From the NCBI GenBank assembly GCA_027486005.1, contig JAIXPZ010000042.1:2894-66893 (forward strand): a stretch of 64,000 bases of DNA, in the 5' to 3' direction. How positions within the stretch are numbered: the first letter of the stretch is position 1; each line of letters begins with the position of its first letter. The notes beneath the pieces are model-generated. The model ran no database searches. It was not told where the DNA came from and saw nothing but the letters and a program-made list of their open reading frames with translations. The position numbers were made by a program, and so were the translations under genes. This document shows, piece after piece, positions 1,689 through 63,015 of this stretch. The DNA comes from Legionellales bacterium. GTDB lineage: Bacteria; Pseudomonadota; Gammaproteobacteria; JAGOUN01.

Positions 1689-1860
1689 GGTTTTTGATAT
1701 ACTGGCCGTTATCATGCCCATTACGCCTCTCAAAGAAGCGGACCAGAGTGGGTTATTTTTTATCAGCTTCTGATTGGCAAAAGCCATGGTTTGTTATATA
1801 ATGACTTTGACCATGCCCGCCACGCCACTCAAAGAAGCGCACCACGGTGGGTTTTTTTAT
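1689..1860 (+). promoter_or_regulatory. Tandem ~99-bp direct repeat (2 units) upstream of the abi gene, with a near-consensus sigma70 promoter (TTGGCA-17-TATAAT at 1773-1801)
   Basis: Unit 1 spans 1689-1763 and unit 2 spans 1788-1860 (GGTTTnTnATATAnTG...CATGCCC...ACGCC.CTCAAAGAAGCG.ACCA..GTGGGTT.TTTTTAT). Each ends in a CCAC..GTGG mini-hairpin plus T-run. Confidence 0.5.
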
Positions 1861-2764
1861 GTCTACTACTTTTCAAAAGCCTTCAATCACCGTCCAAGAG
1901 CAGCTCCATTTTTTAGCGCAACAGGGCTTAATTATTACGGATCAACAAGAAGCTAAACATGTTTTATCCATGATTGGCTATTATCGATTCTCGGGTTACC
2001 TGCTTCCTTATAAACAAGATCATTCCTCTACAAAACCACGCTTATTTATAGCCAATACAAAATTTGAAGATATTTGGCAGCTTTATCGTTTCGATCAAGA
2101 ATTACGTGCGCTGCTATCTTGTGCAACTGAAAAGATAGAAATTGCATTTCGCGCTGCGCTTGTTAATACCACCAGCACTGAATTAAGCCCATTCTGGTAT
2201 GCAGATAAAACCTTTCATCGACAACAGAGAACTTTTGAAGGCTTTATGAAGCACGTAAATCAAGTGCTGGATATGAGTCATGATATTTTTATAAAGCATT
2301 ACGTAGACAAGTATGATTCACCAAAATATCCGCCCATCTGGATGATTATTGAAACCTTATCATTTGGAACATGCTCAAAATTATTCAACAACATAACATC
2401 AGTAGCATTAAGAAAAAAAATCGCAAAACAGTTTGATCAACACCCTACTATACTATCTTCTTGGATACATTCTTTAACGTTTACAAGAAACATTTGCGCT
2501 CATCATGCGCGATTGTGGAATCGTTGGTTAGTGAATTCTCCCATGATTCCAAAACATGAACCTTTACGAGATGCCTTTTTAACTACAAAAGAGTATCGGT
2601 TTCATCTGATTGCTTATGTTGTCCAAAAGTTGCTGAAGGTTGTTGATCCTGAATTCAACTGGCAGAAGTCACTCTATGATTTATTTAGTCGATATCCTTC
2701 TTACCCGGGAATTGAAATGGGATTTCAAAAAGACTGGCAAAACGATCCTTTTTGGAAATTATAA
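1847..2764 (+). CDS. Abi_2 (AbiD/AbiF-like) abortive-infection family protein; the true start is probably the second ATG at 1859
   Basis: N-terminal pattern QEQLHFLAQQGLIITDQQEAKHVLSMIGYYRFSGYLLPY is typical of Pfam Abi_2. The first ATG lies inside the T-run of the upstream repeat. The stop TAA at 2762-2764 abuts the next ATG at 2765. Confidence 0.65.
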   Translation: MGFFMSTTFQKPSITVQEQLHFLAQQGLIITDQQEAKHVLSMIGYYRFSGYLLPYKQDHSSTKPRLFIANTKFEDIWQLYRFDQELRALLSCATEKIEIAFRAALVNTTSTELSPFWYADKTFHRQQRTFEGFMKHVNQVLDMSHDIFIKHYVDKYDSPKYPPIWMIIETLSFGTCSKLFNNITSVALRKKIAKQFDQHPTILSSWIHSLTFTRNICAHHARLWNRWLVNSPMIPKHEPLRDAFLTTKEYRFHLIAYVVQKLLKVVDPEFNWQKSLYDLFSRYPSYPGIEMGFQKDWQNDPFWKL

Positions 2765-27049: not shown

Positions 27050-27822
27050 CATATAAATAGGTACATAAATAGGAACAATATAGGTACGTATATAGGAACA
27101 ATTAATAGTTGGATCGATTATGAAATAAATGAGCGAGGTTACTTCTACTCTGATAGCTTTCATCAACTGCGACAATTAAACCATTTTAGAACTTTTATAC
27201 CCTCCCCTCGCCTCTAAGCCAATTACAACCATGTTAATGATCGCTCTTAAAACATATAGCTTTAAAACGAATCATTATATAGGAACATTAATGGGAACAA
27301 ATATAAGTACATATATAGGTACAATAATTATTAGTACGCTGAAGATATTTTGATTATATACGCGAATATTCTGTTCCTATATTTGTACCTATTTAAAATA
27401 ATAAGTACAAATATGGGGACATATATAGGAACAACATAACAACAGAGATCTGGAGGCTATAAAAAAATAATATAGGAACAAAAATAGGTACAATGTATAT
27501 TTATCAAATATTAAATTTGTCGATTTAATATAGGTACAAATATAGGAACAAAATATTTTATTCCTTATTTTTAAATGTATTATGAAATACATTTGTGCTT
27601 TATAATTTTAAATTAATAAGAAAATACTACAGTTAAAATAGGTACAGTACAATACAATATAGGAACACAAATAGGATCAAATATAGAAACATATATGAGT
27701 ACATATATAGGAACAAATATTGGTGAGATTTTGACAAAGATCTGTTCCTATATTTGTACCTATATTAATAAATAGAAACAAATATAGGAACTTAATTGGG
27801 TACAAATATAGGAACAAAATAT
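27050..27822. repeat. Iteron array: about 30 copies of an 11-bp motif ATATAGGAACA / ATATAGGTACA in both orientations, often as 22-bp dimers (GGTACAAATATAGGAACAAA)
   Basis: Read directly, for example at 27056-27100, 27284-27330, 27375-27400 (inverted), 27404-27440, 27470-27500, 27526-27560, 27635-27725 and 27740-27822. It lies immediately upstream of parA. Confidence 0.85.
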
Positions 27823-27911
27823 AATGGTGATTTTTTACAGCTTTCAAATAATTAGCATCCTGTATTAATGGTTGCAATTTTTGCCATTCGGATAGAAAGC
27901 GACGTAACTCA

Positions 27912-29000
27912 TTGAAATTGTTAAAAAGACCATCTTCACCATCTTTTCTTAAAAAGATCTTGATATTATCACCATATTTGTTTAAGTTAAGGGTATCAGA
28001 ATATCAATTCCTTAAAAAACATGGGGCAATGATGGAAATCGATCCAAAAATTACTGCTGCGGAAATCGCTTTATATCTAAAAATGACTGTTCAAGCTATA
28101 CACAATAAAGTTAAGTCAAAAGGGCTGAAAGTAAAAAAAGCTCAAAATAAAGCCTACTTTGGACACGAGACGGCTAGGGTGATCATTAACCACAATGTTA
28201 ACCAATTGAAAATAGCTATTTCGGTTGTAAAGGGTGGGGTAGGGAAGACTACGTTAGCAGAAGCACTTGCCATTCGTGTAGCTCTATATGGTCTTCGTGT
28301 TCTTTGTATCGATGTGGATCAGCAAGCAAATCTAACTAAAGGCTTGGGCATGGACGAAAAAGCCAAGCACTGCCCAGTGATGATAGATCTTATCGAAGGT
28401 AAGGCAAAGGCTGAAGAAGCTATATTACAAGTAATGCCAGGTCTCGATCTGATTCCTAGTCGTTTAGATAATGTAACACTCGATGGTTATATGATGATTA
28501 ATCGAGTAAACCCAGAGAAAATTTTTAATAAAATTTTTGAGGACGTATTTAAAAACTACGACCTAGTTATCTTTGATTGTCCTCCTACATTAGGTTCTAC
28601 TGTATGCGCTGCGATGTTATGTGCCGATGTAGTAATTTCTCCATTAAATCCAGACGTGTATTCTTATGAAGGAATACAAATCATGGACAAGGAAATTAAA
28701 AATATTCGCGAACAATTTAGTAAAGACATTAATTGGAAAATTCTACTTAATAAATTTGATTCCAGAACTATTCTTTCTACCGGCTATATAAGTCAGCTAA
28801 TGCAAGATCCGGCATATGCTTCAAGATTGCTTGATAGTGTCATCAGAACAAGCCAAGAGTTTCCTAATATGAAACAAAAAGAAAAAACGATTTTTGATTC
28901 TCTTAAGAAATCTACGGCAAAAGAAGATATTGATGCTCTTGCAAAAGAAATAATTGAAATAATGAAGATTCACTCAAAAACAACCCAAGCAGCGAAGTAG
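27912..29000 (+). CDS. parA: ParA/Soj-family partition ATPase with an N-terminal HTH extension (type Ia-like); the likely start is ATG at 28029
   Basis: Deviant Walker A KGGVGKTT, plus Walker A' and B regions. The roughly 60-aa N-terminal extension (EIDPKITAAEIALYLKMTVQAIHNKV) is HTH-like. The track start at 27912 adds 39 low-complexity codons. ATGATG at 28029 is preceded by GGGG. Confidence 0.85.
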   Translation: MKLLKRPSSPSFLKKILILSPYLFKLRVSEYQFLKKHGAMMEIDPKITAAEIALYLKMTVQAIHNKVKSKGLKVKKAQNKAYFGHETARVIINHNVNQLKIAISVVKGGVGKTTLAEALAIRVALYGLRVLCIDVDQQANLTKGLGMDEKAKHCPVMIDLIEGKAKAEEAILQVMPGLDLIPSRLDNVTLDGYMMINRVNPEKIFNKIFEDVFKNYDLVIFDCPPTLGSTVCAAMLCADVVISPLNPDVYSYEGIQIMDKEIKNIREQFSKDINWKILLNKFDSRTILSTGYISQLMQDPAYASRLLDSVIRTSQEFPNMKQKEKTIFDSLKKSTAKEDIDALAKEIIEIMKIHSKTTQAAK

Positions 29001-29014
29001 GGTAGGGGACTTGT

Positions 29015-30271
29015 ATGACAACAGCAGCAGACCTTCTTAAAAAGGCTGAATCTAGAGGTAAAACTCCTCATGTATTTCAACCACAAAAAAGACGTGCATG
29101 GGATTATGCTGTTCAAGAAATAGCTATCAGTGAAGAAATTGTACAAAAAGAAAATAGGAACGAATCTGGGGACAATTGGGTACAGAAATCGGAACAAAGT
29201 GAGGACACAAATAGGAACAATAGGGTACAAATATCGGAACAAAGTAGGGACGAAAATGGGTACGAAAATAGGAACAATTTATCTCAAGAAACTAGTCAAG
29301 ACAAGAAGTTAGACGCTAGTAAATCTATCAATAAATTACCTACTTTACACGATGAAAATATCGAAGCTAATGTGCTAAAGGTATTGAGAAAAATAACAGG
29401 ACATCAACAACAAATTATGGGGCAAATTACAGCTCATATTAAAAGTTTAAAAGAGATAACAAATACAATTAATATACCTATTTCTACGCTATCAGAAAGA
29501 ATAAATGCAGATAAAGATATAACAAGAACTTCCATAAAAAGATTACAGCAAAAATCTATTTTATTAAAAGAATCTGGTAAGAAAGGGCGGCATGGCAGCA
29601 CGTATGTATTGGTTCCTGATTTTATTATAAAAGAGTGTCTAAATTTGTTTGACTGCGGGCCACTTTCTTTTGAAGAAACTGGGTACATAAATAGGAACGA
29701 ATATAGGAACGAATATAGGAACAATAATTCCCTATATAGTAGTAATAATATAAATACTACTACTAGGAATACGGATGACTTACCTGAAAATTGGTTGGCT
29801 ATAAATTTTGAACCGTTAACGGATATTGGATTTTCCCTTACTCAATTACGACAATTGTGTTTGAAATCACTCAATACTCCTGAGGTTGTTCAAGAATCGA
29901 TTAACCACTTTGCGTTTGGTATCGAAAACAATCCTAAGTTTCAGAAGTACTCAGAGCCATTGAACGTATTAATGGGGGTTTTACGCAAAGGAGACGCATG
30001 GTTTGAAAAAAATTATGTATCACCGCAGGAAAAAGCACAACGGCGATTACTTGAATTTAAAAAGGCAGAAGGTGAAAGGCTAAAAGCACTTGAAGAAGAA
30101 GCTTATAAAATTGCTCTAGAAGATTGGAAAGCAAGTTTGTCTGTTGAAGAAATCGAGAATATTGTGCCGAAGCAAGCAAAAAAGGGGGATATTACTCCCC
30201 ATAGTGTAAAAATGAGTGCGTACTTCAGAGAAAATATTTGGCCACTTAAAAAAAATGATTATTTGATTTAA
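29015..30271 (+). CDS. Winged-helix DNA-binding protein with iteron copies embedded in its coding sequence; candidate centromere-binding (ParB-analogue) or Rep-like iteron-binding protein
   Basis: HTH/wing-like segment NIPISTLSERINADKDITRTSIKRLQQKSILLKESGKKGRHGSTYVLVP. It sits downstream of parA and is translationally close (ATG 12 nt after the parA stop). The coding sequence carries iteron copies at 29150-29285 and 29686-29725, which encode NRNEYRNEYRNNN. Confidence 0.5.
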   Translation: MTTAADLLKKAESRGKTPHVFQPQKRRAWDYAVQEIAISEEIVQKENRNESGDNWVQKSEQSEDTNRNNRVQISEQSRDENGYENRNNLSQETSQDKKLDASKSINKLPTLHDENIEANVLKVLRKITGHQQQIMGQITAHIKSLKEITNTINIPISTLSERINADKDITRTSIKRLQQKSILLKESGKKGRHGSTYVLVPDFIIKECLNLFDCGPLSFEETGYINRNEYRNEYRNNNSLYSSNNINTTTRNTDDLPENWLAINFEPLTDIGFSLTQLRQLCLKSLNTPEVVQESINHFAFGIENNPKFQKYSEPLNVLMGVLRKGDAWFEKNYVSPQEKAQRRLLEFKKAEGERLKALEEEAYKIALEDWKASLSVEEIENIVPKQAKKGDITPHSVKMSAYFRENIWPLKKNDYLI

Positions 30272-50318: not shown

Positions 50319-52346
50319 ATGTCACGTTATGCGTTTGAAAATTTATTCCGAGAACCGATAGAACTTTATGGCGGTGTGCTGTTATTGATCATCGGATTGT
50401 TCCTATATTTGTTCCCATATCTGTTCCTATTATTAGGCGTTACAAAGTGGGTGGCTTTGGCGCTGGTATTGGGATTAGCATTGAAACATATTACTAGCGG
50501 CCTGCGTGTTTTTCGCTTCAAACGCAGGCTTTTACAAATGAATGCTTTTTCAATGAGCACACAAGCGCTACCTGCTAATCGCCATCAACTTTATTTAGGA
50601 GAAGGGTTCCAGTGGCAGCCCATACACCGTCAGCGATTACACCTATTAAATCAACTGGATAACCAAGGGTATTTGCAACCTTCAAAGCTTTATCAGTGGA
50701 TCGATACAGCAGCACGTCGTCATCCTGAAGGTCGATTAAATCAGTGGCGTACATTACCGCTTTCACCGTTTAAACCTATGCCTGATATTGGAGGAAAACC
50801 GTCGTTGCACGGTGTTGGAAGTGATACTGAACAACCTGTGTATCTACATCAGCATAATCGCAATAGTCACATGGTTGTGTTTGGGATGACGCGTGTCGGC
50901 AAAACACGATTGATGTGCAATATCGTTGCGCAAGATATCCGTAACGGTGAGGCTGTTTTAATCATTGATCCTAAAAGCGATCTTGAGTTGCTGCAGGATA
51001 TTGTGGCTGCTTGTAAGGTGGCTGGACGTGATAAAGATTTAATGATTTTACACGCTGGGATGCCAGAGTTTTCTGCCAAATATAATCCATTGAATAATTT
51101 TGTGAACATCAGTGAAATTGCGACCCGTGTGACAGGCGCTATTTCGGCCGAAGGAGAAGGCCAACAGTTTAAAGATTTTGCGTGGAAGTTTTTAAATATC
51201 GTATCTACCTGTTTAATGGAGATGGGTGAGCCAATTAGCTACGCCACGCTTGCCTTTTATGTGACACGCCCAAAACAGCTTCTTTATCAGTACGGCGAAA
51301 AAATGTTTCCGATGAAAGACCCTCGCTATCAAGAAAAAATTGAACAAATACTGGCAGAAAATAGTAATAAGATTGATAAGAAAGGTAATAAAAAAGGTGA
51401 TATGACGCAACAAGAAGCGGTACAAGTGTATGTCGAAAATTATATTCAAGAAACGCTCGAAAGAGGAGACCGTAGTATTTATGACGCTATCATTGTCGAT
51501 CTGCATTATGCCGCGAATCTAGGCGAAGAATACTATTCTAAAATTACCGCAAGCTTAGGTCCTGTTTTTGATAAAATTAATAAGACATCTGCGCGCGATG
51601 TATTTTCTTGGGAAGGTGAAAGCACACTTCCTGTTATTCGACTTGAAGAAGTCATTCGCGATAAAAAAGTCGTATACATGGGGCTCGATGCACTTTCTAA
51701 CGAAGCGATGGCCAAAGCTATTAGTCAAGCCTTAATTGCCGATTTAGTAACACTTATCGGTAAGCTCTATAAAACTGCACCTGATAAAAAATTTCCATTA
51801 TGCTTACACGTTGACGAATTTAGTAACATGGTCAGAGATGAGTTTATTAATCTTTTAAATAAAGCCGGTGGTGCAGGGATTAAAGTTGCGGCTTATACAC
51901 AAACCGTCAATGATTTGGGTGCGGTTTTTGGAACCAATAAAGATAAGCCTAAAATGCTTCTGGGTAACTTTGGTACGATGATTATGCTGCGTGTTGCTAA
52001 TGACGACACTGCAGAAGTTTTTGTGAATTGCTTAGAGCGAACTCAAACACGTAGTGCCGTACCTTACACCACGACATCCGATAAACCAGACGCACAGGAT
52101 GGCGATTTTTTCACGACGCAAAATACCGATTCAGTGAGTGAAGAATATCAATCGATCATTGAGGTCAATCATTTATTTTCATTGCCTAAGGGACAAGCGT
52201 TTGTGCTGACTGACGGCGGGAAACTTTACAAGATTCGAATTCCGCTTCCTGAAGCTCAAAAAGGGCTGCCGAATAACTTTGAAGAAATTCTAAAAAAAAT
52301 TAATACGAAGTCAGGCTTAAATCAGTATGAAGAGGTGAAATTATGA
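50319..52346 (+). CDS. traD: Type IV coupling protein TraD (conjugative coupling factor, SXT/TOL-like)
   Basis: Two N-terminal TM helices. Walker A GMTRVGKT. Walker B/DE region (CLHVDEFSNM). 675 aa. Confidence 0.85.
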   Translation: MSRYAFENLFREPIELYGGVLLLIIGLFLYLFPYLFLLLGVTKWVALALVLGLALKHITSGLRVFRFKRRLLQMNAFSMSTQALPANRHQLYLGEGFQWQPIHRQRLHLLNQLDNQGYLQPSKLYQWIDTAARRHPEGRLNQWRTLPLSPFKPMPDIGGKPSLHGVGSDTEQPVYLHQHNRNSHMVVFGMTRVGKTRLMCNIVAQDIRNGEAVLIIDPKSDLELLQDIVAACKVAGRDKDLMILHAGMPEFSAKYNPLNNFVNISEIATRVTGAISAEGEGQQFKDFAWKFLNIVSTCLMEMGEPISYATLAFYVTRPKQLLYQYGEKMFPMKDPRYQEKIEQILAENSNKIDKKGNKKGDMTQQEAVQVYVENYIQETLERGDRSIYDAIIVDLHYAANLGEEYYSKITASLGPVFDKINKTSARDVFSWEGESTLPVIRLEEVIRDKKVVYMGLDALSNEAMAKAISQALIADLVTLIGKLYKTAPDKKFPLCLHVDEFSNMVRDEFINLLNKAGGAGIKVAAYTQTVNDLGAVFGTNKDKPKMLLGNFGTMIMLRVANDDTAEVFVNCLERTQTRSAVPYTTTSDKPDAQDGDFFTTQNTDSVSEEYQSIIEVNHLFSLPKGQAFVLTDGGKLYKIRIPLPEAQKGLPNNFEEILKKINTKSGLNQYEEVKL

Positions 52347-52989: not shown

Positions 52990-55122
52990 ATGAGTATATG
53001 TGTATTGTGTGAAAAACCCAGTCAAGCAAGAGATATTGCGAATGTGTTGGGAGCAAGACAACGTCAAGAAGGTTTTATTGAAGGTAATGGTTATCTGGTC
53101 ACGTGGTGTTTGGGGCATCTTTTAGAACTCGCACCGCCCGAGCATTATCAACCCAACTTACAACCTTGGCGATTAGAAGTGTTACCTGTAATTCCTCAAG
53201 CGTGGGCCGTGCTTCCGAATAAAAAAACGAGTCAACAATTAACAGTCATTAAAAAATTATTGAAGCAAGTCAATCATGTCATTATAGCAACGGATGCGGA
53301 TAGAGAGGGGGATGTGATAGGGCGAGAAGTATTAGATTTTTGTCATTATCAAGGAAAGATTGAACGCTTATGGTTATCGGCGTTAGATGATCAGTCCATT
53401 AAGCAAGCGCTTAAGGATATTAAGCCGAACAGTTTTAGTATTAACTTATATCAAGCCGGGCTTGGCAGACAGAGAGCCGATTGGCTGGTCGGAATGACAT
53501 GTACTATGGCAGCAACCGTTCAGTTTTCAAAAGGAAATGGTGTGCTCTCCGTAGGCCGTGTACAAAGTCCAACGCTAAAACTTATTGTGGATCGTGATTT
53601 TGTTATCGAGAATTTTAAATCACAAGATTACTATGATTTGTTGATTACGGTGACGCACCCAATGGGAAACTTCCAAGCGAAATGGCAAGTGCCAGAAACT
53701 TTGGCGGATGAAGAAGGTCATTGTCGCCATCGAAACCATGTTGAAGCGGTGTTACTTACGGTAAAAGATAAACCGGTTCAAGTGATAAACTATTCTGAAC
53801 AAGAAAAAACTCAAAAACCACCGTTAGGACTCTCTTTATCTGTTTTACAAAAGCTATGTTCAAGCAAGTTTGGATTTACAGCGAAAAAAACATTAGAGAT
53901 CGCACAGTCGCTCTATGAAACACATAAAGCAACGACGTATCCAAGAACAGATTGTCAGTATTTACCGTCAAGTCAGTTTTCTGACGTAAGCACAATTTTC
54001 AAGCACTTATCAAATAAAAATAAAGAGTATGTGGATTTAATTGCGAAATGCAATGTGTCGTTCACGAGCCCCATTTGGAATGATAAAAAAATTACTGCCC
54101 ACCACGCTATTATTCCGACGTTAAATGATAGTGTTGTTATCAGCAAGTTAAGTGATGATGAAAAGAAATTATATGACCTCGTATGCCGCACCTACATCGC
54201 ACAGTTTTTAGGCGATTACTATTATCTACAAAAAGAAGTTGAACTTTCGGTAGAAAGCGAGCATTTCAAGGCAGGTTCACATACTTCAAAATCTGTTGGC
54301 TGGAAATTGGCGCTCACGAATGCAGACGATGATGAGCAGCTGGAATCACTTGGCGATATCACTATTCCGACATTAGCAATAGATGAGAGCTTGCTTTGTC
54401 AGGATGCAATAATTCAGGGAAAACAAACAAAACCACTATCACGCTTTACAGAAGGTACACTGATCACCGCAATGAAAAATATTGCAAGCGTCATAGACGA
54501 TGTCGCTTTAAAGAAAATCTTACGTGAGTCAGCGGGCATTGGTACAGAAGCCACGCGCGCCAATATTATCGAAACGCTCATTCATAGAGAATATATAGAG
54601 CGAAAGGGTAAACAGCTTATTTCAACGACAAAAGGGCGTGAGTTGATTCGACTTTTGCCGAGTCACGTGACGAATCCCGCATTAACGGCTAATTGGGAAA
54701 GCAAACTTGATGAAATAGCACAAGGCAAATATGCATTGGAAGATTTTATGACTGCGCAAGTGGATTTGCTGAGAGAAATGTTGCATGAAATTACAGCGCA
54801 ATCATCTTCAGTGACTGCATCTAAAACATCTGAATATCATTGCACAAAGTGTAAGAGTGCTTTATTTCGTAGAAATGGAAAGTTTGGGTACTTTTGGGGA
54901 TGCAGTGGCTATCCTGAGTGTAAAGAAGTGTACAAAGACAATAAGGGTAAACCAATACTTAACAACGAACAGTATGCCTGCCATAATTGCAAAGAAGGGT
55001 TTTTGCAATTACGTTCAAGTAAGAAAGGAAAATTTTGGGGATGCTCAACGTATCCAGCCTGTCAAACAATCGTGAATGATAAACGCGGAAAACCAGAAGC
55101 GTGGAGAAAAAAAGATGCTTAA
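52990..55122 (+). CDS. topB: DNA topoisomerase III (TopB), ICE-associated type IA topoisomerase with C-terminal zinc ribbons
   Basis: TOPRIM start MSICVLCEKPSQARDIANVLGA with an acidic DxDxEG cluster. The catalytic Tyr region and repeated C4 zinc-ribbon motifs (CTKCKS...CSGYPEC; CHNCKEG...CSTYPAC) are present. Confidence 0.9.
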   Translation: MSICVLCEKPSQARDIANVLGARQRQEGFIEGNGYLVTWCLGHLLELAPPEHYQPNLQPWRLEVLPVIPQAWAVLPNKKTSQQLTVIKKLLKQVNHVIIATDADREGDVIGREVLDFCHYQGKIERLWLSALDDQSIKQALKDIKPNSFSINLYQAGLGRQRADWLVGMTCTMAATVQFSKGNGVLSVGRVQSPTLKLIVDRDFVIENFKSQDYYDLLITVTHPMGNFQAKWQVPETLADEEGHCRHRNHVEAVLLTVKDKPVQVINYSEQEKTQKPPLGLSLSVLQKLCSSKFGFTAKKTLEIAQSLYETHKATTYPRTDCQYLPSSQFSDVSTIFKHLSNKNKEYVDLIAKCNVSFTSPIWNDKKITAHHAIIPTLNDSVVISKLSDDEKKLYDLVCRTYIAQFLGDYYYLQKEVELSVESEHFKAGSHTSKSVGWKLALTNADDDEQLESLGDITIPTLAIDESLLCQDAIIQGKQTKPLSRFTEGTLITAMKNIASVIDDVALKKILRESAGIGTEATRANIIETLIHREYIERKGKQLISTTKGRELIRLLPSHVTNPALTANWESKLDEIAQGKYALEDFMTAQVDLLREMLHEITAQSSSVTASKTSEYHCTKCKSALFRRNGKFGYFWGCSGYPECKEVYKDNKGKPILNNEQYACHNCKEGFLQLRSSKKGKFWGCSTYPACQTIVNDKRGKPEAWRKKDA

Positions 55123-55696
55123 ATCACTACTCTTAAAATTTAAAGCTAAATGGACAGAAAAAGAGCGTGAAGAAAAAGATAGAATAGGTCGAGAAATGGT
55201 CACAACTAAAATGATTATAGATCTTTACGCTTACACCTCTAAGCGATTACAGAAGCGTCTAAGTGAAAATTGTATCGTCTCTGAGGGGATTTGCTATTTT
55301 ATGAGGACCTATGCCATGGAGGAATTTATCGAGCAACTTGCTAATCGAGATCTTTCTTATTTAATGCGCTGTTATCCGAGCGATAATTATATCATTGAGC
55401 TTCATGCTGATTTGAACTGCAATGGAAAAATATCCTATCGTGATGCAGTTACGAATCAGCTGTTCTATCGTGATGCCTTTATTTGGCCACAAAGTTTTAT
55501 CTCTCTATCGTCTTTGAAGTTTAAGTTGAAAAAATTACCGCTTCTTTACGCGAGTGAGCGAGTAAGTTTTGGAATGAAAAAAGACGAAGATATTAGCAAT
55601 CTTTATGGTCTATTTATTTGTTCAGAAATGCAAGAAAACCCATTTAATTTGCATTCCGAGAAAGCAATGGCTTGCTATTTAGAAAAAAATGGATAG
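55115..55696 (+). CDS. Hypothetical protein
   Basis: The track ORF starts at 55076, overlapping the topB 3' end. The internal ATG at 55115 (MLKSLLLKF) is more likely. No motif recognised. Confidence 0.35.
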   Translation: MLKSLLLKFKAKWTEKEREEKDRIGREMVTTKMIIDLYAYTSKRLQKRLSENCIVSEGICYFMRTYAMEEFIEQLANRDLSYLMRCYPSDNYIIELHADLNCNGKISYRDAVTNQLFYRDAFIWPQSFISLSSLKFKLKKLPLLYASERVSFGMKKDEDISNLYGLFICSEMQENPFNLHSEKAMACYLEKNG

Positions 55697-56213
55697 AATT
55701 ATTAATAATAAAGCACTGTGTTGTGCTGAATTAATTTACCTACTGCTGATAACTCATCCCTTTAATCGTCAGCGGAGCGTTTAGCTAGGGACATCAGGAT
55801 ATAAATGCAAAGCTTATTTGCCAATCGTCCTGACAGATCGTCGATCTGAACACCCATAGAATACCTATTTGATTGAATTTATTCAATTTCGTAGATGCTA
55901 TGGTCGTTCTTTAACAATGTGATATCACAAATTAAGTTTCTGTTTTGAATGAAGTGACTTTTAAATAAGAAGTATTAAAAAAATGATACTTTTGAAAATG
56001 CGTTTTTGAACATAATGACTTGCCAAGAATCAACTTAATGCACAAGGAGAATATACCTTGAATATTATGTTTTTTCTTAATCGAGACAACACCGATATTA
56101 TTCATAATGTTAGTGTTTTACCTACCGCTGCTGCGGAAGAATAACTCTTCCTGCAGTCGCGGAAGTGTTTTCTTCAGTAGCTTTTCTTAAACAAACTACT
56201 GAAGGAGACAATT

Positions 56214-56462
56214 ATGTCTAATTGCGCTAGAGACGATATGTTTTTAATTGGTTCTGTCGAAAAAGAGCCGAGTTCTATAACAGAAACATATCGTGAATTA
56301 TTTGAGAGCGTATCGTTTGAAATGCAGTCAAATGCAGAAATTATTGATTATCATCTTGCGCATTTCGGTGCTGTTGAAGGTGGTTTCATTAATAATTTCA
56401 GAAACAGAATGATGTCTATCGTCAATGCCATTGATAATAGTCGTCATTTATTGTCGATATAA
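56214..56462 (+). CDS. Small hypothetical protein preceded by a structured leader
   Basis: 82-aa ORF. SD AAGGAG is partly buried in the hairpin CTTCAGTAG-N15-CTACTGAAG. Confidence 0.45.
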   Translation: MSNCARDDMFLIGSVEKEPSSITETYRELFESVSFEMQSNAEIIDYHLAHFGAVEGGFINNFRNRMMSIVNAIDNSRHLLSI

Positions 56463-56546
56463 TATTGTGTATAAAACCCCCCGCTGGGAGAGATAATCTC
56501 CTTGCGGAGCAATTATATTCTCAGCTAATAATGTGAGGATATAATT

Positions 56547-56909
56547 ATGAGCAACGGAACTTTTAGATCATGGATGGAAACGCAATACTCACCCGAGACG
56601 ATGAATGATATTTATCATCATGGGTGTGGCGGTGGTGTTTCAGGATTAATTTATTATTCAGAAACAACTGCGTTGTATGCTGCTTATCAAGAAGAAATTT
56701 GGGAGATTTTACAAGAAAGTGCAGAAGAGTTTGGATATGACAATGTGATTGAGTTACTTGCAAGTCACTCAAAAGCAGATTTAAGTACTCCGGCTACTTT
56801 TGCGAATCATCTTGTTTGGTTTGCTGCTGAAACTATTGCTAGTCAATGGATACAGCAGCATGAACAAGACGAGGATGAAAACGAAAAAGTTTTTTCTTTT
56901 AAGCATTAG
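56547..56909 (+). CDS. Small acidic hypothetical protein preceded by a conserved leader element
   Basis: 120 aa with an acidic tail QHEQDEDENEKVF. The conserved double-hairpin leader lies at 56478-56546. Confidence 0.45.
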   Translation: MSNGTFRSWMETQYSPETMNDIYHHGCGGGVSGLIYYSETTALYAAYQEEIWEILQESAEEFGYDNVIELLASHSKADLSTPATFANHLVWFAAETIASQWIQQHEQDEDENEKVFSFKH

Positions 56910-57030
56910 ATGCGAGCCTACTTATAGTATTTACTATGTGTAGGCACATTTAAACAATTTTTAAACCCTGCTGGGACATGTTTCCCAGCAGGGGAATTAT
57001 GTCCTCAGCAATAATCGTGAGGACGTAATA

Positions 57031-57453
57031 ATGAAAGATACAATGTTGCCACCCGAGAAAATAACAGGAGGGCAGTTACGATACGCATTGAGAGGATTTA
57101 CTTGCACAGCAAACTGGTACAGTCATCCGCTGACTAAGCGGTTAGTGTATACAGATGGAGTGCGGCATTTAGCTCAAATATGTAAATCGTATTGGTTAAT
57201 TGATTTAATTGCTCTGCAATTTTTACCAGAGTTGATAAAAACATCAAATGACTGGTTTTATAGCGTGAGAATTAACGTGACTGACCATCAAACAGGTGTA
57301 GTGATTGTGACGGATGGAAATAGTAAGAAGCCTATCTTAACAGAAGTGCTGCCGTATACGACTTTTCCTAAAGTGAAAAATTTTATGCTTTTTATTGAAA
57401 GTATGGATCATGAAAACAACACATACTGTTTGCTGTTACCTTCTGAGCATTAG
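57031..57453 (+). CDS. Small hypothetical protein, paralogue A
   Basis: 140 aa, clearly paralogous to 57575..58000 (shared NWY-H....YTDGVRHL core). Conserved double-hairpin leader at 56967-57030. Confidence 0.5.
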   Translation: MKDTMLPPEKITGGQLRYALRGFTCTANWYSHPLTKRLVYTDGVRHLAQICKSYWLIDLIALQFLPELIKTSNDWFYSVRINVTDHQTGVVIVTDGNSKKPILTEVLPYTTFPKVKNFMLFIESMDHENNTYCLLLPSEH

Positions 57454-57574
57454 AATATTTTTTGCGCTTAGCCGAATCTAAGCGCAAAAATTTAAATGCA
57501 AAACATTTTTTACCCAGCAGGGGAGTAATCTCCTGCTGGGAGATTATGTCCTCAGCAATAACTATGAGGTCATA

Positions 57575-58000
57575 ATGATGAAAGATGCTGTGTTAGAACT
57601 AGAAAAAATAAAAGAAGAGGAGTTTCGACAAGAACTTGGACAGTTTACAGGAACGGTTAATTGGTATCGTCACAGGCAAAATGCTCAATTTATTTATACT
57701 GATGGTGTTCGCCATTTGATTGAATGTTACCGAGCCATTAGGTTTATTGACATGATTGCATTAGAAGTACTGCCAACCGTCAAAAAAATAAATGATGATT
57801 GGTGTTACTGCTTGATGCTGGCAACTACTGCACAGGAAACAGGTGAATTGACTGTTTTCAATGATGATGATGCAAAATTACTGCTGACAATAAAATTGTC
57901 CTACAGCACCATTCCTCAAATTAGTGAGTTAAGATTTGTCTTAAGTTGTGTTGATGAAAAAGCTGAAGTGTTTTGTTTATCTCTGTCTTCTGAAAATTGA
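57575..58000 (+). CDS. Small hypothetical protein, paralogue B
   Basis: 141 aa, paralogous to 57031..57453. Conserved double-hairpin leader at 57510-57577. Confidence 0.5.
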   Translation: MMKDAVLELEKIKEEEFRQELGQFTGTVNWYRHRQNAQFIYTDGVRHLIECYRAIRFIDMIALEVLPTVKKINDDWCYCLMLATTAQETGELTVFNDDDAKLLLTIKLSYSTIPQISELRFVLSCVDEKAEVFCLSLSSEN

Positions 58001-58165
58001 ATGATTGCCTGTATTTAGCTTTGGCTGGATGCAGGCAATGCTTATCTAAACTGTATATTTTTATTTGCTCGACTTGCAAAACTTGACGCGAGTGCCATTA
58101 TCGAATCAAAATAGCGAAGCCTGGATTTTCTGGGCAATTATTATTAATTTTGAGGATGATTACCC

Positions 58166-58459
58166 ATGGCTAAACCAGTAAATGTTGATAAATTCAAAGC
58201 AACGATTGCAGCACAAAAAGAACAGATCGCTACACTAAAAGCGTCTGTACGTGAACTAAAGGCTGAATTAAAAGCAAAACCTAAGGCCGCAAAAGCAAGC
58301 AGCAAACCTGCTAAACCAGTCGCTAAGAAAAAAGTAGCTGCAAAAAAGGCGGCAAAGCCTGTTGTTAAAAAAACAGCTGCGCCAAAGAAGGTGGCTAAAA
58401 AGCCTGCCAAGAAAACTGCGGCTAAAAAAGCCAAAGTAGTTGCACCACAAGCTGCATAA
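58166..58459 (+). CDS. Lysine/alanine-rich histone H1-like DNA-binding protein
   Basis: N-terminal coiled-coil segment, then AKPKAAKASSKPAKPVAKKKVAAKKAAKPVVKKTAAPKKVAKKPAKKTAAKKAKVV, which are KPAAKKA-type H1-like repeats. The antisense ORFs at 58144..58434 and 58268..58450 are artefacts of the repeat. Confidence 0.65.
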   Translation: MAKPVNVDKFKATIAAQKEQIATLKASVRELKAELKAKPKAAKASSKPAKPVAKKKVAAKKAAKPVVKKTAAPKKVAKKPAKKTAAKKAKVVAPQAA

Positions 58460-58470
58460 GTGTGTGAATT

Positions 58471-58504
58471 CTATTAGTGCGCCACTTTTGGTGGCGCACT
58501 AATA
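58471..58504 (+). terminator. Strong perfect hairpin (15-bp stem, UUUU loop) after the H1-like gene; putative terminator, but no U-tract
   Basis: CTATTAGTGCGCCAC-TTTT-GTGGCGCACTAATAG read directly. It lies 12 nt after the stop codon. Confidence 0.45.
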
Positions 58505-58658
58505 GAATATGCTAAATAGGGGTTGTGTGGAGTTCTGCTTTTGTCCATCAAGAGTAATTATGCAAAAAAGAAGCAGTAATGCGGATTGCTGGAGAAATGG
58601 GAATATTTAACGTATCATTGGCTTAATTCCGATATGGCGTGATTTTTCATAAAAAATA

Positions 58659-59324
58659 TTATGTAATTTTACTTATTTTTAATTTTTCATCTACTTTATT
58701 TACCGTGAGAATACATTGCATTTCACAAGCCGGTGATTCTAATGAGGTAGCGCGTAATGTAATATGATGCTCTTCATAACCTGGAATAAATATATCAGGG
58801 GCAAGCGCGCCATGCAGAAAGTACAATTTAATTTTCCCATCTTTTTTCGCTTCATTATAGTTAGCTATAGGTATAAAGGTTTTTTCTCCTTTATTAAGTG
58901 AAAAATTGTGTTTAAAATGATGTGTTATTTTTTCACTTTTAGCGCCAATAGTTTCAATAACGAATTCGCAATTTGATAAAAGTTTATTACCTGTGTTGTG
59001 AATTGCTATGGAAATTATTCGATATCGATCGCTAGGACTGGTACTTTGAATTTTTTCAAAATTTCCCTCGGTACCGATTAGAATAGTAAGAGAATATGTC
59101 GGCATCAACTGAATGATACAAGCGAACACTATAAATCCCACTAAAAAGCACATAGCAAAAACAGAAGTTAAAGATTGTGCCGGTATGAGTCCATAGTGCA
59201 TTAGAATAAGGCAACCAGCTACGCCGAAAATGGCAAAAAGCACACCCGCTACGCAGCATGTCACAAATTGCCGTTGAGAAAAGCTTTGACTACATCGCTC
59301 TAAAATAGAGTAAAATTTATCCAA
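58659..59324 (-). CDS. Hypothetical membrane protein
   Basis: N-terminal TM helices (VAGVLFAIFGVAGCLILMHYGLI; FAMCFLVGFIVFACIIQLM) followed by a soluble domain. Confidence 0.4.
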   Translation of the reverse strand: MDKFYSILERCSQSFSQRQFVTCCVAGVLFAIFGVAGCLILMHYGLIPAQSLTSVFAMCFLVGFIVFACIIQLMPTYSLTILIGTEGNFEKIQSTSPSDRYRIISIAIHNTGNKLLSNCEFVIETIGAKSEKITHHFKHNFSLNKGEKTFIPIANYNEAKKDGKIKLYFLHGALAPDIFIPGYEEHHITLRATSLESPACEMQCILTVNKVDEKLKISKIT

Positions 59325-59449
59325 AATGAAACCTGCTGAATTAGTGTGATTGTTTAGTCTAAGATATTGATTACTAAAATCAAAGTCGTATTTTTTTTAG
59401 GTAAGGGGGTTCCGACGCTTTCGCCTCCACAACCCCAAATACTTCAATT

Positions 59450-59737
59450 TTAATCGTCAGACTTACTGTTAACCGCTTCTTTCAACTGAGTCGCTGGCTT
59501 GAAGTTGACCACTACTGAGCGTGGGATAATCATTTCTTTTCCCGTTGATGGATTGCGGCCTTTTCTTTCTTCTCTTATTTTAGTCGCAAAGTTACCGAAT
59601 TTTGGCACAGCAATCTTATCTTGTTTAGCAAGATTCTCTGTGATTGTTTCAAATATCGCCATAAAAATGGTATCTACATCTACTTTAGTAGCGCCTGTTT
59701 TTTCTGCAATAACGGCAAGGAGTTCGGCTTTAGTCAT
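59450..59737 (-). CDS. HU/IHF-family nucleoid-associated DNA-binding protein
   Basis: MTKAELLAVIAEKTGATKVDVDTIFMAIFETITENLAKQDKIAVPKFGNFATKIREERKGRNPSTGKEMIIPRSVVVNFKPATQLKEAV is the canonical HU fold signature, including the arm RNPSTGKEMIIP. Confidence 0.9.
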   Translation of the reverse strand: MTKAELLAVIAEKTGATKVDVDTIFMAIFETITENLAKQDKIAVPKFGNFATKIREERKGRNPSTGKEMIIPRSVVVNFKPATQLKEAVNSKSDD

Positions 59738-60906
59738 CGATTATCTCTCTTTTTGTGGTTAAAAGTGAGCGCAGATCCTATCATATCTGTAGATCAACCT
59801 CATGCTCTTATTTCATTTGATCGTCTTGGAGTGAGCAATAAACAGCCATATTATTGCGTCAAGACGATCATTTTTCTTAGATTCTTTGGGCAATAAATAA
59901 GAACAACTATCCCAAATAGCTGTGTATTTTTGCTTAAAGAATCTTGCGTTTTTGTTTGAAAATTTTGGTGATAGGTCAAAAATTTGGAACAAAAAACGCT
60001 CCTATAGTAAACATGTACTTAATGATTTTGTTGCAAAGTTTAGCGCAACCTAGTCATTAAGTGGGTGTTTGCGGTTCTGGCAAAAGCGTTAGCGTTGCGA
60101 TGCGTCACTGCGATGAGCGCTTTACTAAGCGTGATATTACGCAGTGACGCAGCGAAAGCTGTTCGAAAAAGCGTTTGTAATCAACTGATTACAAACACAT
60201 GGAAGCGTGGAAAAAAACGCTCGGCGTTTTTTTGCAGTTTTTAAGCGCGGACATCAAAAAAATCCGCGCGCCTGTTGGCTGTGGAACTCGTGTGTCAAAC
60301 CGCAGGTTTGTCTACATTTCCACATATTGTGAAATTGTGAATTGCGTGCGTAAACTTTTTTTGTAAGCACCTGTTTGCAAAAAAATGTTTTCCACGCTAT
60401 TCACAATTTTTTCTAAAAAATATTGAAAAAGTAAAAGAATTCGGTAATATAAGGAAATGAGGATTACTGATGAGCGGGCGAAATTCCTGTGAAACCAGAA
60501 ATGGTCTAATCCAAACTGCTGTTATCTTAACTCTTTAGTCGTCAGCGGAGCATTTAGCTTAGAGTCATTGGGATATAAATGCAAAACTTAGCTTTTGCCA
60601 ATCGTCCTGACAAATCGTTCGCGATTTGACCTACCTTTATTTTGTTACAACTTAACATTTTGAAACTTTATTATTTAAAAATTTAACATTGACAACGGCG
60701 ATTATTTGATTGGTCTATTTTTAATCCATTTAAATTTAACATAACGAATTGTCTGACAATTAGAAGTGAAAAATTGAGTTTGGTATTGACTAAACAATTA
60801 ACGCGTAACACGACAATGGCATTGTCGCTCAAGTTATTTGAGCGACCTGCTTTAAACATTTACTGACTGATACTGTAATATTTTACTTAACACTTTAGGA
60901 ACACCT

Positions 60907-61131
60907 ATGGAAACGCTAGAAAAACTGAACATAGAAAATGACACAACTGAAGCATCGAAAAAGCAACGACTATTAAGCGACGAAACGTATCAACTATTGA
61001 TGAACACTCAAGAAACGATATTTAATGAAACTGGATTTAGGGTACCTCTTAGAAAGATATTCGATAAACTTGTTAACACGGAATCAATGCATCACATATC
61101 AAGTACATTTATTCAAAAATTTAATTCTTAA
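60907..61131 (+). CDS. Small hypothetical protein
   Basis: 74-aa ORF preceded by AGGAACACC. Possibly an excisionase/regulator-sized protein, but no motif recognised. Confidence 0.3.
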   Translation: METLEKLNIENDTTEASKKQRLLSDETYQLLMNTQETIFNETGFRVPLRKIFDKLVNTESMHHISSTFIQKFNS

Positions 61132-61298
61132 TTCACTTAAAACTTAACATTCAACACTTAAAAAAGGAGAACTTATGACTGAAACTTGTAAGCAATAAAA
61201 AAACTGAGACTTGAGCATCTTTTTAAGATGCTTACCACTTATGGGATAACTGTAACGTGGTAGCTCATTTACACTAAACTAATGTAGAGTTTGACGAA

Positions 61299-62129
61299 AT
61301 GGCATATACCATACAGCGGCCACTTGCTGAATTTAGAGAAATTCTAGCGACTTATAAACAAGGGTCACCCAGAACAAGAAACGGCTATAAGTCGGTTATT
61401 AAAGTCATTATTAAAGACTTATTCTTTTTGAAAGTGTTTTTCAATTCATTTCATGAGGTGTCTCTCGACCAGATTAATAGCCTTATTAATCATTGGAAAA
61501 AAAGAAAATTATTGAATGTGACTATTGGGAGTAGGCTTTCAATTTTACGAAAATATTTAGGATTGTTAAATCATTCAGTTCCCTTTCCATCCAATTTAGA
61601 GCTGGGCCTTACAAGAAAAAAATCAAAGTTAACGGTGGCACTTATTGCTGCTCCACTACAAATACTCGATCAAGTTGAACATCGGTTGACGAAATATATT
61701 TTGAAATTACAAATTTATTTCGGTCTTACGAAGCAGGAAGCCATAAAATTTCGAATTCAACCTTATCAGGCCGTTAAAAATGCACTGTATATATCGAAAT
61801 CAGTTTCTCATAATAACAAGGATAGATTGATCAGCCTCCATTTTCCAGAACAAGAACAGTTGCTAAGTCAACTTGCTATTGAGCTCGGGTTAAAACTCTC
61901 ACTATCTGAAAAATATGATAAGGTTACCCTTGTGAATTTATATAACACCGAACTTGTGCTTGCTAATCATTCATCGAAAACTTCATTTAGAGCGCTTTAC
62001 GCACGCAATCTTTTTGACTATCTCGTTAATCAACAGCAACTCACAAAAAAAGAAGCGCTTGTTGAAATAGCAGGGGAGATGGGGATTTCTGATTTAAAAT
62101 TGATACGGGATTGGATAAGCGATGAGTAA
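61299..62129 (+). CDS. Integrase-like (tyrosine-recombinase-fold) paralogue, probably degenerate
   Basis: Shares the block LQIYFGLTKQEAIKF with the downstream paralogue (LQKEFGLRREEAIKF). That block carries K where the downstream copy has R (candidate catalytic Arg I), so it is probably degenerate. Confidence 0.4.
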   Translation: MAYTIQRPLAEFREILATYKQGSPRTRNGYKSVIKVIIKDLFFLKVFFNSFHEVSLDQINSLINHWKKRKLLNVTIGSRLSILRKYLGLLNHSVPFPSNLELGLTRKKSKLTVALIAAPLQILDQVEHRLTKYILKLQIYFGLTKQEAIKFRIQPYQAVKNALYISKSVSHNNKDRLISLHFPEQEQLLSQLAIELGLKLSLSEKYDKVTLVNLYNTELVLANHSSKTSFRALYARNLFDYLVNQQQLTKKEALVEIAGEMGISDLKLIRDWISDE

Positions 62130-63015
62130 TACCGCGTTAGGAAGTGCTTATTATACGGCTTCTAAGACGATTAGTCGGGCAAGGCTATCGCATCAGTCTT
62201 TGAACGATTACAAAGGTATTCTGCGCCTTAGTCTGCAGCAGTTAAGTCAGTTGGGATTTAAATTACGTTCTATTGATCAACTAAAACAAAAACATGTCGA
62301 TAAACTTATTATGGGTTGGAAGGAAAGTCAGCTATCCTCTGGAACGATTAAAAATCGGCTTTCTGTTTTAAGACGTGTGACGGAACTAACGGGAAGAGAG
62401 CAAGTTATTAAAAATAATGCAGAATATCATATTGCGCCGCGACGATATTATACCGAAATATCAAAAGCAGTACATGTTATCGATTTAGATAGAATTGAAG
62501 ACCCTTATGTACGAGCGTCATTAGAATTACAAAAGGAGTTTGGTTTGCGCAGGGAGGAGGCGATTAAATTTAAGCCCCATCAAGCAGATGAAAAATTAGC
62601 CATTAGATTACAAGGTTCCTGGACAAAAGGAGGAATCCCCCGATTAATACCCATTACACGCCAATCACAACGTGAATGTTTAGATCGAATCAAGTTGTTA
62701 GTAGGTAAAAAAGATTCACTCATTCCAAAAGAACTAACCTATCGGCAACAACGTAATCGCTATGATTATTTTACAAAGAAAAATGGATATCACAAGCTTC
62801 ATGGGTTGCGCCACGCGTATGCGCAACACCGATATGAAGCAATCACGAATGAAATGACAAAAGGCTATGGTTGGAAATCACCTATTGATGGTGGGCCAAG
62901 TACATCACAGATGAATGCTTATGAAAGACACGTTGATCTACAAGCGCGACTTATGATCAGCCACGAACTCGGGCATTCGAGACTAGCCATAGTGAGGAGC
63001 TATTGTGGAAAGTAG
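62122..63015 (+). CDS. Integrase-like protein (tyrosine-recombinase catalytic-domain-like)
   Basis: GLRREEAIKF (candidate Arg I). HGLRHAYAQHRY (H-x-x-R box). A C-terminal Tyr lies in RLAIVRSYCGK. Start overlaps the upstream paralogue's stop. Confidence 0.45.
   Translation: MSNTALGSAYYTASKTISRARLSHQSLNDYKGILRLSLQQLSQLGFKLRSIDQLKQKHVDKLIMGWKESQLSSGTIKNRLSVLRRVTELTGREQVIKNNAEYHIAPRRYYTEISKAVHVIDLDRIEDPYVRASLELQKEFGLRREEAIKFKPHQADEKLAIRLQGSWTKGGIPRLIPITRQSQRECLDRIKLLVGKKDSLIPKELTYRQQRNRYDYFTKKNGYHKLHGLRHAYAQHRYEAITNEMTKGYGWKSPIDGGPSTSQMNAYERHVDLQARLMISHELGHSRLAIVRSYCGK

Follow-up and report, generated by a model that had tools for sequence, protein, structure and literature searches.

Covarying pseudoknotted RNA repeats, one of them behind a predicted hammerhead ribozyme, precede two operons of a Legionellales conjugative element

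Results

Two Direct Repeats in an Integrative Conjugative Element

We analyzed a 64,000-nt stretch of contig JAIXPZ010000042.1 from a Legionellales bacterium (assembly GCA_027486005.1), hereafter referred to as the window, which is an integrative conjugative element. Its left part carries an integrase, Abi genes, a type I restriction system and a group II intron, followed rightward by parA with iteron-like repeats, a CI/LexA-like repressor, and a type IV secretion gene set that ends with TraD (50319-52346) and topoisomerase III (52990-55122). To the right of these genes lie two direct repeats, copies A and B, which are the subject of this study. Copy A sits between a 206-aa open reading frame (ORF) and five small genes on the plus strand. 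Past the last of these, which encodes a histone-H1-like protein, a 221-aa membrane ORF and an HU gene lie on the minus strand, followed by ~1.2 kb of non-coding DNA that contains copy B; a conserved small gene and a pair of recombinase-like genes come next. We report here that A and B are paralogous structured RNAs that covary strongly on the plus strand, that a predicted type I hammerhead ribozyme precedes copy B, and that the two copies are probably leaders of the operons behind them (Table 1).

Pairwise alignment defined the ends of the repeat core and gave 95 identical positions between A and B, corresponding to 85.6% of the 111 ungapped columns, or to 80.5% of the 118 columns obtained once three indels, of 1, 3 and 3 nt, are included. 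Both copies are on the plus strand and their starts are 4773 nt apart, in agreement with a first-pass annotation that had reported direct repeats of ~110 bp, ~85% identical and 4.7 kb apart, each with a TATAAAT motif inside. The local alignment score of the pair was 71, whereas 2000 pairs of 120-nt segments drawn at random from the window reached 22 at most, and the 19-mer TTTGCCAATCGTCCTGACA, which is common to A and B, occurs twice versus 0.01 times expected. When the window was searched with the covariance model with filters switched off, A and B were the sole copies, the next match scoring 10.6 bits. Upstream of the core, weaker homology between A and B extends for ~45-55 nt more, covering the hammerhead in B and what appears to be a decayed one in A.

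Copies in other genomes were reached via the neighboring proteins. A scan with the exact 18-mer TTGCCAATCGTCCTGACA hit 13 loci in genome contigs and 25 loci in metagenome contigs, all of them by chance as judged from local alignments to the repeat that were no better than the null; diverged copies, such as those in L049 and L057, are undetectable in this way. Two gapped patterns of the repeat found no match in viral contigs, and a search of viral contigs with an alignment of the 276-aa recombinase-like protein found no related loci. Similarly, blastn against plasmids with positions 55000-61500 and with one Legionella copy as queries gave no cross-matches because the family is too diverged for blastn.

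The relatives of the window type fall into two sets. A-type copies occupy the same place in L016, L017, L019 and L018 (the last partly covered) and are 96-99% identical to copy A, while the adjacent 206-aa protein is only 78-90% identical. B-type copies precede the same three-gene operon in L051, L049/L050, L052, L053/L054 and L057; their RNA is ~70-85% identical, and the 276-aa protein encoded there is only 46-59% identical. The repeat is thus under stronger conservation than the neighboring proteins. L049, L052, L053 and L057 have one copy each, which is of the B type and precedes the recombinase operon, and these single-copy relatives are different elements with other left-hand neighbors. 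In L016, copy A is present, and the contig stops 12 nt past the hammerhead and 9 nt into copy B, probably owing to an assembly break at the repeat. The spacing from A to B in L016 is ~1 kb shorter because the 221-aa gene is absent.

Table 1. Predicted features of the two repeats and their surroundings in the window, and hammerheads on Legionella plasmids
Feature	Position	Strand	Sequence, evidence or content
Copy A, repeat core (putative structured leader)	55741-55851	+	Alignment and covariance model R1, 128.5 bits
Copy A pseudoknot domain	55743-55791	+	Both helices covary, 13 sequences
Copy A helix X	55743-48 / 55770-75	+	CUGCUG / CAGCGG; crosses helix Pa
Copy A helix Pa	55757-61 / 55787-91	+	UCCCU / AGGGA; 3 pairs with double changes
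Copy A loop 3		+	AGCGUUUAGCU
Copy A hairpin Pb-Pc	55794-55833	+	RNAalifold and pair counts; Pb UCAGGAU/GUCCUGA (100% paired, 3 pairs changed on both sides), Pc GCAAA/UUUGC
Copy A internal loop			AUAAAU / CAAUC; contains TATAAAT (55800-55806) and AUG (55805-07)
Copy A hairpin Pd	55834-55848	+	CAGAUC-GUC-GAUCUG
Copy A short ORF, stop	55847-49		14 codons
Copy B, repeat core (putative structured leader)	60514-60631	+	Alignment and covariance model R1, 134.2 bits
Copy B pseudoknot domain	60516-60565	+	Loop 3 AGCAUUUAGCUU
Copy B helix X	60516-21 / 60543-48	+	CUGCUG / CAGCGG
Copy B helix Pa	60530-34 / 60561-65	+	ACUCU / AGAGU
Copy B hairpins	60568-60628	+	Pb UUGGGAU/GUCCUGA (two G-U wobbles), Pc GCAAAA/UUUUGC, Pd CAAAUCG-UUCG-CGAUUUG
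Copy B TATAAAT, AUG, stop	60574-60580, 60579-81, 60627-29
Type I hammerhead ribozyme before copy B (predicted)	60461-60512	+	Descriptor, fold and covariation; stem I GGAUUA/UAAUCC, core CUGAUGA (60467-73) and GAA (60491-93), stem II GCGGG-CGAAAUU-CCUGU, stem III ACCA-GAAA-UGGU
Putative decayed hammerhead before copy A	55696-55737	+	Alignment with the copy B hammerhead and direct reading
Sigma-70-like promoter of the copy B transcript (predicted)	60423-60450	+	TTGAAA, 16 nt, TAATAT; promoter scan
Operon downstream of copy A	56214-58459	+	ORF list and Pfam; 82-aa ORF, DUF7222, two DUF6876 genes, lysine/alanine-rich histone-H1-like protein
Operon downstream of copy B	60907-63015	+	Conserved 74-aa protein and recombinase-like pair
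Legionella hammerheads, L058	3079-3133, 5695-5750
Legionella hammerheads, L059	1639-1694, 4258-4310
Legionella hammerheads, L060	3832-3884, 7829-7876

A Covarying Pseudoknot Followed by Two Hairpins

The repeat RNA folds into an H-type pseudoknot, then a long hairpin with an invariant internal loop, then a 3' hairpin. From nine sequences, RNAalifold predicted four main helices, namely Pa, Pb and Pc (the last two forming the hairpin with the internal loop) and Pd, as well as a weaker fifth helix (helix 2) whose pairs vary on one side only. In the nine-sequence alignment, 99.6% of the cells were paired and six pairs were changed on both sides; when the distant L057 was added, the ten sequences were paired in 99.3% of the cells, with compensatory double changes in seven pairs. 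As a control, we slid the partners by 1-3 columns, upon which pairing dropped to 22-47% with almost zero double changes. Hairpin Pd shows a compensatory change from G-C to A-U between A and B, and its loop varies in both length and sequence. The folding strand could be determined from 23 G-U cells versus 1 A-C cell and from pairing of 99.6% on the plus strand versus 90.9% on the minus strand; it is the sense strand of the downstream genes.

The pseudoknot is formed by helix X, which crosses Pa. In 13 sequences, six of which come from Legionella plasmids described below, helix X was paired in 74 of 77 cells with every position covarying, and Pa in 61 of 65 cells. Note that the MAFFT alignment of the six Legionella domains was out of register, and that a loose pseudoknot descriptor gave 2.8 chance matches per window, so that it is informative only via adjacency to hammerheads. 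Between X and Pa lies the conserved loop 3 (consensus RGRGCGUUUAGY), which, like the internal loop, is invariant or nearly so while the helices covary. A search of Rfam with copies A and B of the window gave no family match even at E = 10. We also considered a GGA sponge of the CsrA type, which was rejected since the GGA motifs are too few and unconserved.

A Hammerhead Ribozyme before Copy B and Its Apparent Remnant before Copy A

A hammerhead descriptor applied to both strands of the window gave a single match, located just upstream of copy B; the expectation from shuffled sequence is 0.04 matches per 123 kb. The minimum-energy fold and RNAalifold agree on a three-way junction with stems I, II and III of 6, 5 and 4 bp, respectively; these three helices meet at the junction with stem I open, as is characteristic of a type I hammerhead. 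The full core is present, comprising CUGAUGA, GAA, the A15.1-U16.1 pair and a C at H17, and with C17 at position 60506, cleavage is predicted between 60506 and 60507, 8 nt upstream of copy B. Pairing is kept at 95-100% across five window-type B sequences, and stems I-III covary between subfamilies when 13 hammerheads are compared; within the core of these 13 homologues, only N7 varies (U/A/C). In Rfam, the sole match to the hammerhead was RF03152 (RAGATH-1 hammerhead), in the expected register, with 14.7 bits and E = 2.1 in a 96-nt search; the gathering scores of the Rfam hammerhead models were not reached (56.3 bits for RF03152).

The predicted sigma-70-like promoter upstream of the hammerhead is kept in all B-type relatives as TTGAAA, a spacer of 16-17 nt, and then TAGTAT, TATACT or TATGAT. 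Past this promoter, conservation resumes at the start of the hammerhead, which accounts for the ~55 nt by which conservation of the B type reaches further upstream of the repeat.

The stretch before copy A can be read as a decayed hammerhead. It contains stem I-like segments (GAAUUA/UAAUUU) and GAA, has UUAAUAA instead of CUGAUGA, and forms a hairpin, AGCAC-UGUGUU-GUGCU (55712-27), that is stem II-like and also terminator-like. Stem III and the cleavage site are missing, the hammerhead descriptor gave no match at copy A, and the stretch is not conserved among the A-type orthologues.

Hammerheads with Pseudoknots on Legionella Plasmids

Homologues of the 297-aa recombinase-like protein are found on >200 plasmids. 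Three Legionella plasmids (L058, L059 and L060) share the operon consisting of a small gene and the recombinase-like pair, and each of them has two hammerheads, one before the recombinase operon and one before the ssb/DUF932/ardA genes that follow. All six hammerheads have an X/Pa pseudoknot directly downstream, as in the window, although the helix sequences differ: helix X reads GUCUG/CAGAC, GCUAC/GUAGC, GCCAC/GUGGC or GCCAU/AUGGC in Legionella, compared with CUGCUG/CAGCGG in the window, and the variants of Pa overall are UCCCU/AGGGA, ACUCU/AGAGU, CCCC/GGGG, UUCC/GGAA and UUCCC/GGGAA. Taken together, a pseudoknot begins within 3-6 nt after 12 of the 12 hammerheads that have downstream sequence (six B-type and six from Legionella), the thirteenth, in L016, being at the contig end. 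No hammerhead was present near the recombinase genes on plasmids of Pleionea, Francisella, Avibacterium and Acinetobacter.

Stem I is common to both hammerheads of a Legionella plasmid, being identical in L059 and L060 and compatible at 5 of 6 pairs in L058; after both cuts, the liberated RNA, which might be the recombinase mRNA, could assemble a hammerhead again and become circular. The Rfam motif RAGATH-13 occurs just upstream of the first gene of the recombinase-like pair in Legionella, and is absent between the 74-aa and 276-aa genes of the window.

The plasmids that carry homologues of the 297-aa protein are mostly typed as 'non-mobilizable'. Genes next to the homologues include a coupling protein in Pleionea, topoisomerase III in Francisella, and ssb/DUF932/ardA in Legionella.

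Operons behind the Repeats and Other Features of the Element

The gene order of the operon behind copy A is unchanged in L016 and L017. Its first gene (82 aa) has no homology to the first gene behind copy B (74 aa), from which it follows that only the leader was duplicated. The recombinase-like pair behind copy B consists of overlapping genes for a degenerate 276-aa protein and an intact 297-aa protein, with PF12834 and PF12835. In this pair (61299-63015), the 297-aa protein keeps the catalytic residues of tyrosine recombinases, which its overlapping 276-aa paralogue has lost. No canonical relaxase was noticed among the window ORFs scanned, for which reason the pair might be an unrecognized transfer or resolution enzyme.

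Several other features were observed in and around these operons. Within the operon of copy A, leaders of another kind are repeated before each DUF7222 and DUF6876 gene (56470-56546, 56950-57030 and 57500-57574). They have a strong hairpin (e.g., CCCUGCUGGGA/UCCCAGCAGGG) and, behind it, a second one, UCCUCAGC...GUGAGGA, in which the Shine-Dalgarno sequence is buried, suggesting translational control of every gene of this operon. In L016 (11433-12236), a single 267-aa ORF combines the DUF7222 gene with the first DUF6876 gene, and the 221-aa membrane ORF of the window (58659-59324, minus strand) is absent from both L016 and L017. Between the HU gene and copy B, ~700 nt of non-coding DNA (59740-60420) keep an identity of 78-89% among elements in which the flanking proteins share only 54-59%. 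This block, a candidate oriT or operator region, includes an inner covarying hairpin enclosed by a perfect inverted repeat of 11 bp, GCGTCACTGCG/CGCAGTGACGC (60106-60150), and several more hairpins. A further inverted repeat in the block, whose arms are 38 nt long (60332-60409), lies directly before the B promoter and is deleted in L052.

Elsewhere in the window, the type I restriction-modification genes have as their neighbor the group II intron (25114-26923, minus strand; Rfam RF00029 and RF01999), whose reverse transcriptase ORF spans 25191-26444. Repeat arrays at 27053-27823 and 29172-29726, with a 12-bp (and 22-23-bp) unit, AATATAGGAACA, lie on either side of parA (27912-29000) and resemble centromere or iteron sites. 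In the Legionella israelensis plasmid L058, an abiF RNA (RF03085, 45.8 bits) is located on the minus strand at 2497-2533 beside an Abi-family gene; the Abi_2 gene of the window (1847-2764) had no abiF RNA match at the gathering threshold.

Discussion

The comparisons above establish the fold of the repeat RNA and the strand on which it forms, the anatomy of the hammerhead, and the linkage of hammerhead, pseudoknot and operon across relatives. As to function, we consider it rather probable that copies A and B are cis-acting 5' leaders that define, and protect or regulate, the 5' end of the mRNA. A terminator scan from each copy to its operon predicted none except a weak site at 56043-56060, and the absence of a terminator behind the copies favors leaders over free-standing small RNAs. 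In the mechanism we propose, an RNA of ~110 nt, transcribed left to right, would form part of the 5' untranslated region of two operons of the conjugative element. The copy B transcript would start from its own sigma-70 promoter and be cut by the ribozyme ahead of the repeat, after which the pseudoknot would stand at the new 5'-hydroxyl end of an mRNA encoding the small protein together with the recombinase-like pair. Copy A, with its ribozyme apparently lost, would lie inside or at the head of a transcript for small establishment-type genes. By this scheme the ribozyme would strip off upstream RNA, leaving a new 5' end; the pseudoknot, together with the hairpins, would guard this end against RNases and set the level of translation, so that both operons would obtain a context-independent and coordinated output, similar to that of RiboJ.

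Several observations weigh against this model. Copy A acts, if at all, without a ribozyme, so the role of the pseudoknot must be independent of its position at a 5' end. The proposed promoter of copy A is not conserved, reading TAGAAC in L017 and L018. No consistent complementarity or contact was found between loop II of the hammerhead and the flanks or the leader. The conserved loop 3 and internal loop look more like a specific binding pocket than a passive fold. Finally, the family is small, comprising about 7 window-type elements and 3 plasmids.

The arrangement of A and B is reminiscent of the putL and putR RNAs of phage HK022, which are similar structured copies in the leaders of two early operons and act in cis. 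The likeness is that of paired leader copies in one mobile element; there is no similarity in sequence or structure, nor evidence for antitermination here. A second parallel is RiboJ, a synthetic insulator made of a ribozyme and a hairpin, which raises transcript and protein abundance (PMC6206723). As proposed for copy B, a variable 5' part is removed and a structured end with a 5'-hydroxyl is left before the coding region; however, RiboJ was engineered with a simple hairpin, whereas the natural RNA has a conserved pseudoknot and hairpins with invariant loops.

Hammerheads of bacteria are known to flank genes of mobile elements, and in three Legionella strains ardA is the gene right behind a hammerhead (Perreault et al. 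2011, PMC3088659). The hammerhead before copy B shares with these type I ribozymes the full catalytic core and three covarying stems, and its context is also alike, with integrase-like, anti-restriction and establishment genes and with Legionella among the hosts. On the other hand, the repeat described here is not the ribozyme but a domain downstream of the cut, and copy A has no intact hammerhead.

The closest relative in Rfam is RAGATH-32 (RF02922), which matches the Legionella adelaidensis copy (L060:3909-3988) with 82.4 bits. This copy resembles those of the window in its place right after a hammerhead, in its neighboring genes and in the two hairpins downstream; copy B, too, follows its predicted cut closely and precedes PF12834/PF12835 genes, as in L060. 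The first 24 positions of the RAGATH-32 model, GUGGCUGGACGUUUAGUCGGGAAA, correspond to the 3' arm of helix X, loop 3 and the 3' arm of Pa. At this block, the window reads CAGCGGAGCGUUUAGCUAGGGA in copy A and CAGCGGAGCAUUUAGCUUAGAGU in copy B, followed by two hairpins, with the differences falling in positions that pair in X and Pa. However, RF02922 gave no match to the window copies at E ≤ 10 (threshold 41.8 bits) and left 5 of the 6 Legionella copies unmatched at E = 0.1. The model begins at the 3' arm of X and lacks the 5' arms, and hence cannot represent the pseudoknot; in addition, the downstream hairpins are unlike in sequence. Hammerheads and RAGATH motifs are already known, and the present locus is a diverged relative missed by current models. 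What is new is the recognition of the pseudoknot, its constant pairing with a hammerhead in elements of Legionellales, and a ribozyme-less paralogue within the same element.

The main rival to the leader model, kept open by the invariant loops, is that the same RNA is a sensor, i.e., an aptamer for a small molecule or a binding site for a protein of the element (e.g., the 74-aa protein), that switches both operons, with helix Pb, which buries the Shine-Dalgarno-like AGGA/GGGA/GAGG and the AUG, as the expression platform. We regard this as possible although not likely. H-type pseudoknots of such size are typical of small riboswitch aptamers, with which the dimensions of this pseudoknot agree, and near-invariance of loop 3 and the internal loop amid covarying helices is what a binding site would give. 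Moreover, helix sequences are common to the copies of one element and change from element to element (the window, L058, L059 and L060), as would be the case with one element-specific factor, and the 74-aa protein is conserved along with the leader from the window to Legionella. However, the similarity within elements is also explicable by duplication or gene conversion, no candidate ligand or RNA-binding domain was found, and an expression platform is not conserved, given that subfamilies differ in the sequence of Pb-Pc, in the AUG and in how far away the first gene lies (148-362 nt).

It is unlikely that the leader is remodeled by translation of a short ORF that would thereby control the downstream genes. 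The AUG within TATAAAT opens a frame of 14-16 codons that ends at the foot of hairpin Pd. A Shine-Dalgarno-like purine run, buried in helix Pb, lies 6-8 nt before the invariant AUG in all 10 window-type copies, and both 3-nt indels between A and B keep the frame, with the stop at the end of Pd. Nevertheless, the peptide is not conserved. Indels of 1 nt break the frame, giving 30 codons in L049 and 19 in L057, which excludes a conserved leader peptide; the amino-acid replacements (R to H, P to L, D to N) coincide exactly with the compensatory changes in helix Pb; and no corresponding AUG exists in the Legionella relatives. Nor would it be unusual for 14 codons to stay open by chance. For these reasons the main constraint is on RNA structure and not on a peptide.

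That A and B are two free-standing genes for trans-acting small RNAs is quite unlikely. This suggestion of the first-pass annotation nevertheless came closest, as both copies are structured, covarying RNAs; what should probably be given up is their independence, for they head operons and no terminator follows them. The promoter of copy B, and a U run shortly after the 3' hairpin in L049, L052 and L053, would suit such genes. However, neither copy A nor L057 nor Legionella has the U run, support for a promoter is limited to B, and the RNA is always at the head of an operon on the same strand.

Sites that act as DNA are very unlikely. The repeats would then be the att-like ends of a nested insertion, as had been suggested, or recombination sites for the adjacent recombinase-like pair, perhaps used as folded single strands as in integron attC or CTX-phage attP, and recombination of A with B would excise 4.7 kb. 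Direct repeats do lie beside recombinase genes, which B-type copies always accompany, and in the Legionella plasmids two copies flank the recombinase operon; Pb, the unpaired spacer and Pc are vaguely reminiscent of an attC stem, and conjugation yields single-stranded DNA. However, the core of the adjoining hammerhead is conserved, which makes sense only for RNA, on the same strand as the fold. The R and L boxes (RYYYAAC/GTTRRRY) are not present, and the fold is a pseudoknot with two hairpins, unlike that of attC. The occurrence of B alone in four other elements does not fit paired ends, and the content between A and B shifts by ordinary indels while the repeats stay, as in L016, where a shorter block lies between A and the beginning of B. 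Among the relatives, no single empty or hybrid site was found at the same place.

The weakest alternative, duplicated sigma-70 promoters or operators with TATAAAT as the -10 hexamer, is hardly credible: although TATAAAT is invariant in 10 copies, it lies unpaired in the internal loop, the Legionella relatives lack it, the promoter scan called no plus-strand promoter that uses it, the best -35 candidate, TTTAGC, is only 14-15 nt away instead of 16-18 nt, and the covariation reflects a folded single strand and not a protein-binding duplex. The idea of duplicated regions under common control survives in spirit, at the level of RNA, while the reading of TATAAAT as a -10 element was not upheld. Two further kinds of promoter were considered. 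An Frpo-type single-stranded-DNA promoter does not agree with the fold, which is on the sense strand with TATAAAT unpaired and only 7 bp before it, and a sigma-54 promoter on the minus strand (TGGCA...TTGCA) was rejected upon direct reading because its spacing is wrong and unequal between the copies.

Bacterial hammerheads before mobile-element genes such as ardA have been known since 2011, and the present locus joins such a ribozyme to a conserved, covarying pseudoknot right behind the predicted cut. The Rfam RAGATH-32 model seems to be a truncated view of a wider, pseudoknotted family. More speculatively, the ~50-nt pseudoknot behind the hammerheads might constitute a new functional class of RNA, either a switch that senses a ligand or protein or a nuclease-resistant substitute for a 5' cap; if so, processing by the ribozyme would be tied through it to early expression, following conjugation, of the establishment and recombinase genes. 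The element offers a natural comparison, namely a leader with and without a ribozyme before two different operons, so that the effect of cleavage on the downstream mRNA is directly testable. Given that the recombinase-like pair is common on plasmids typed as 'non-mobilizable', the logic of these leaders may apply broadly.

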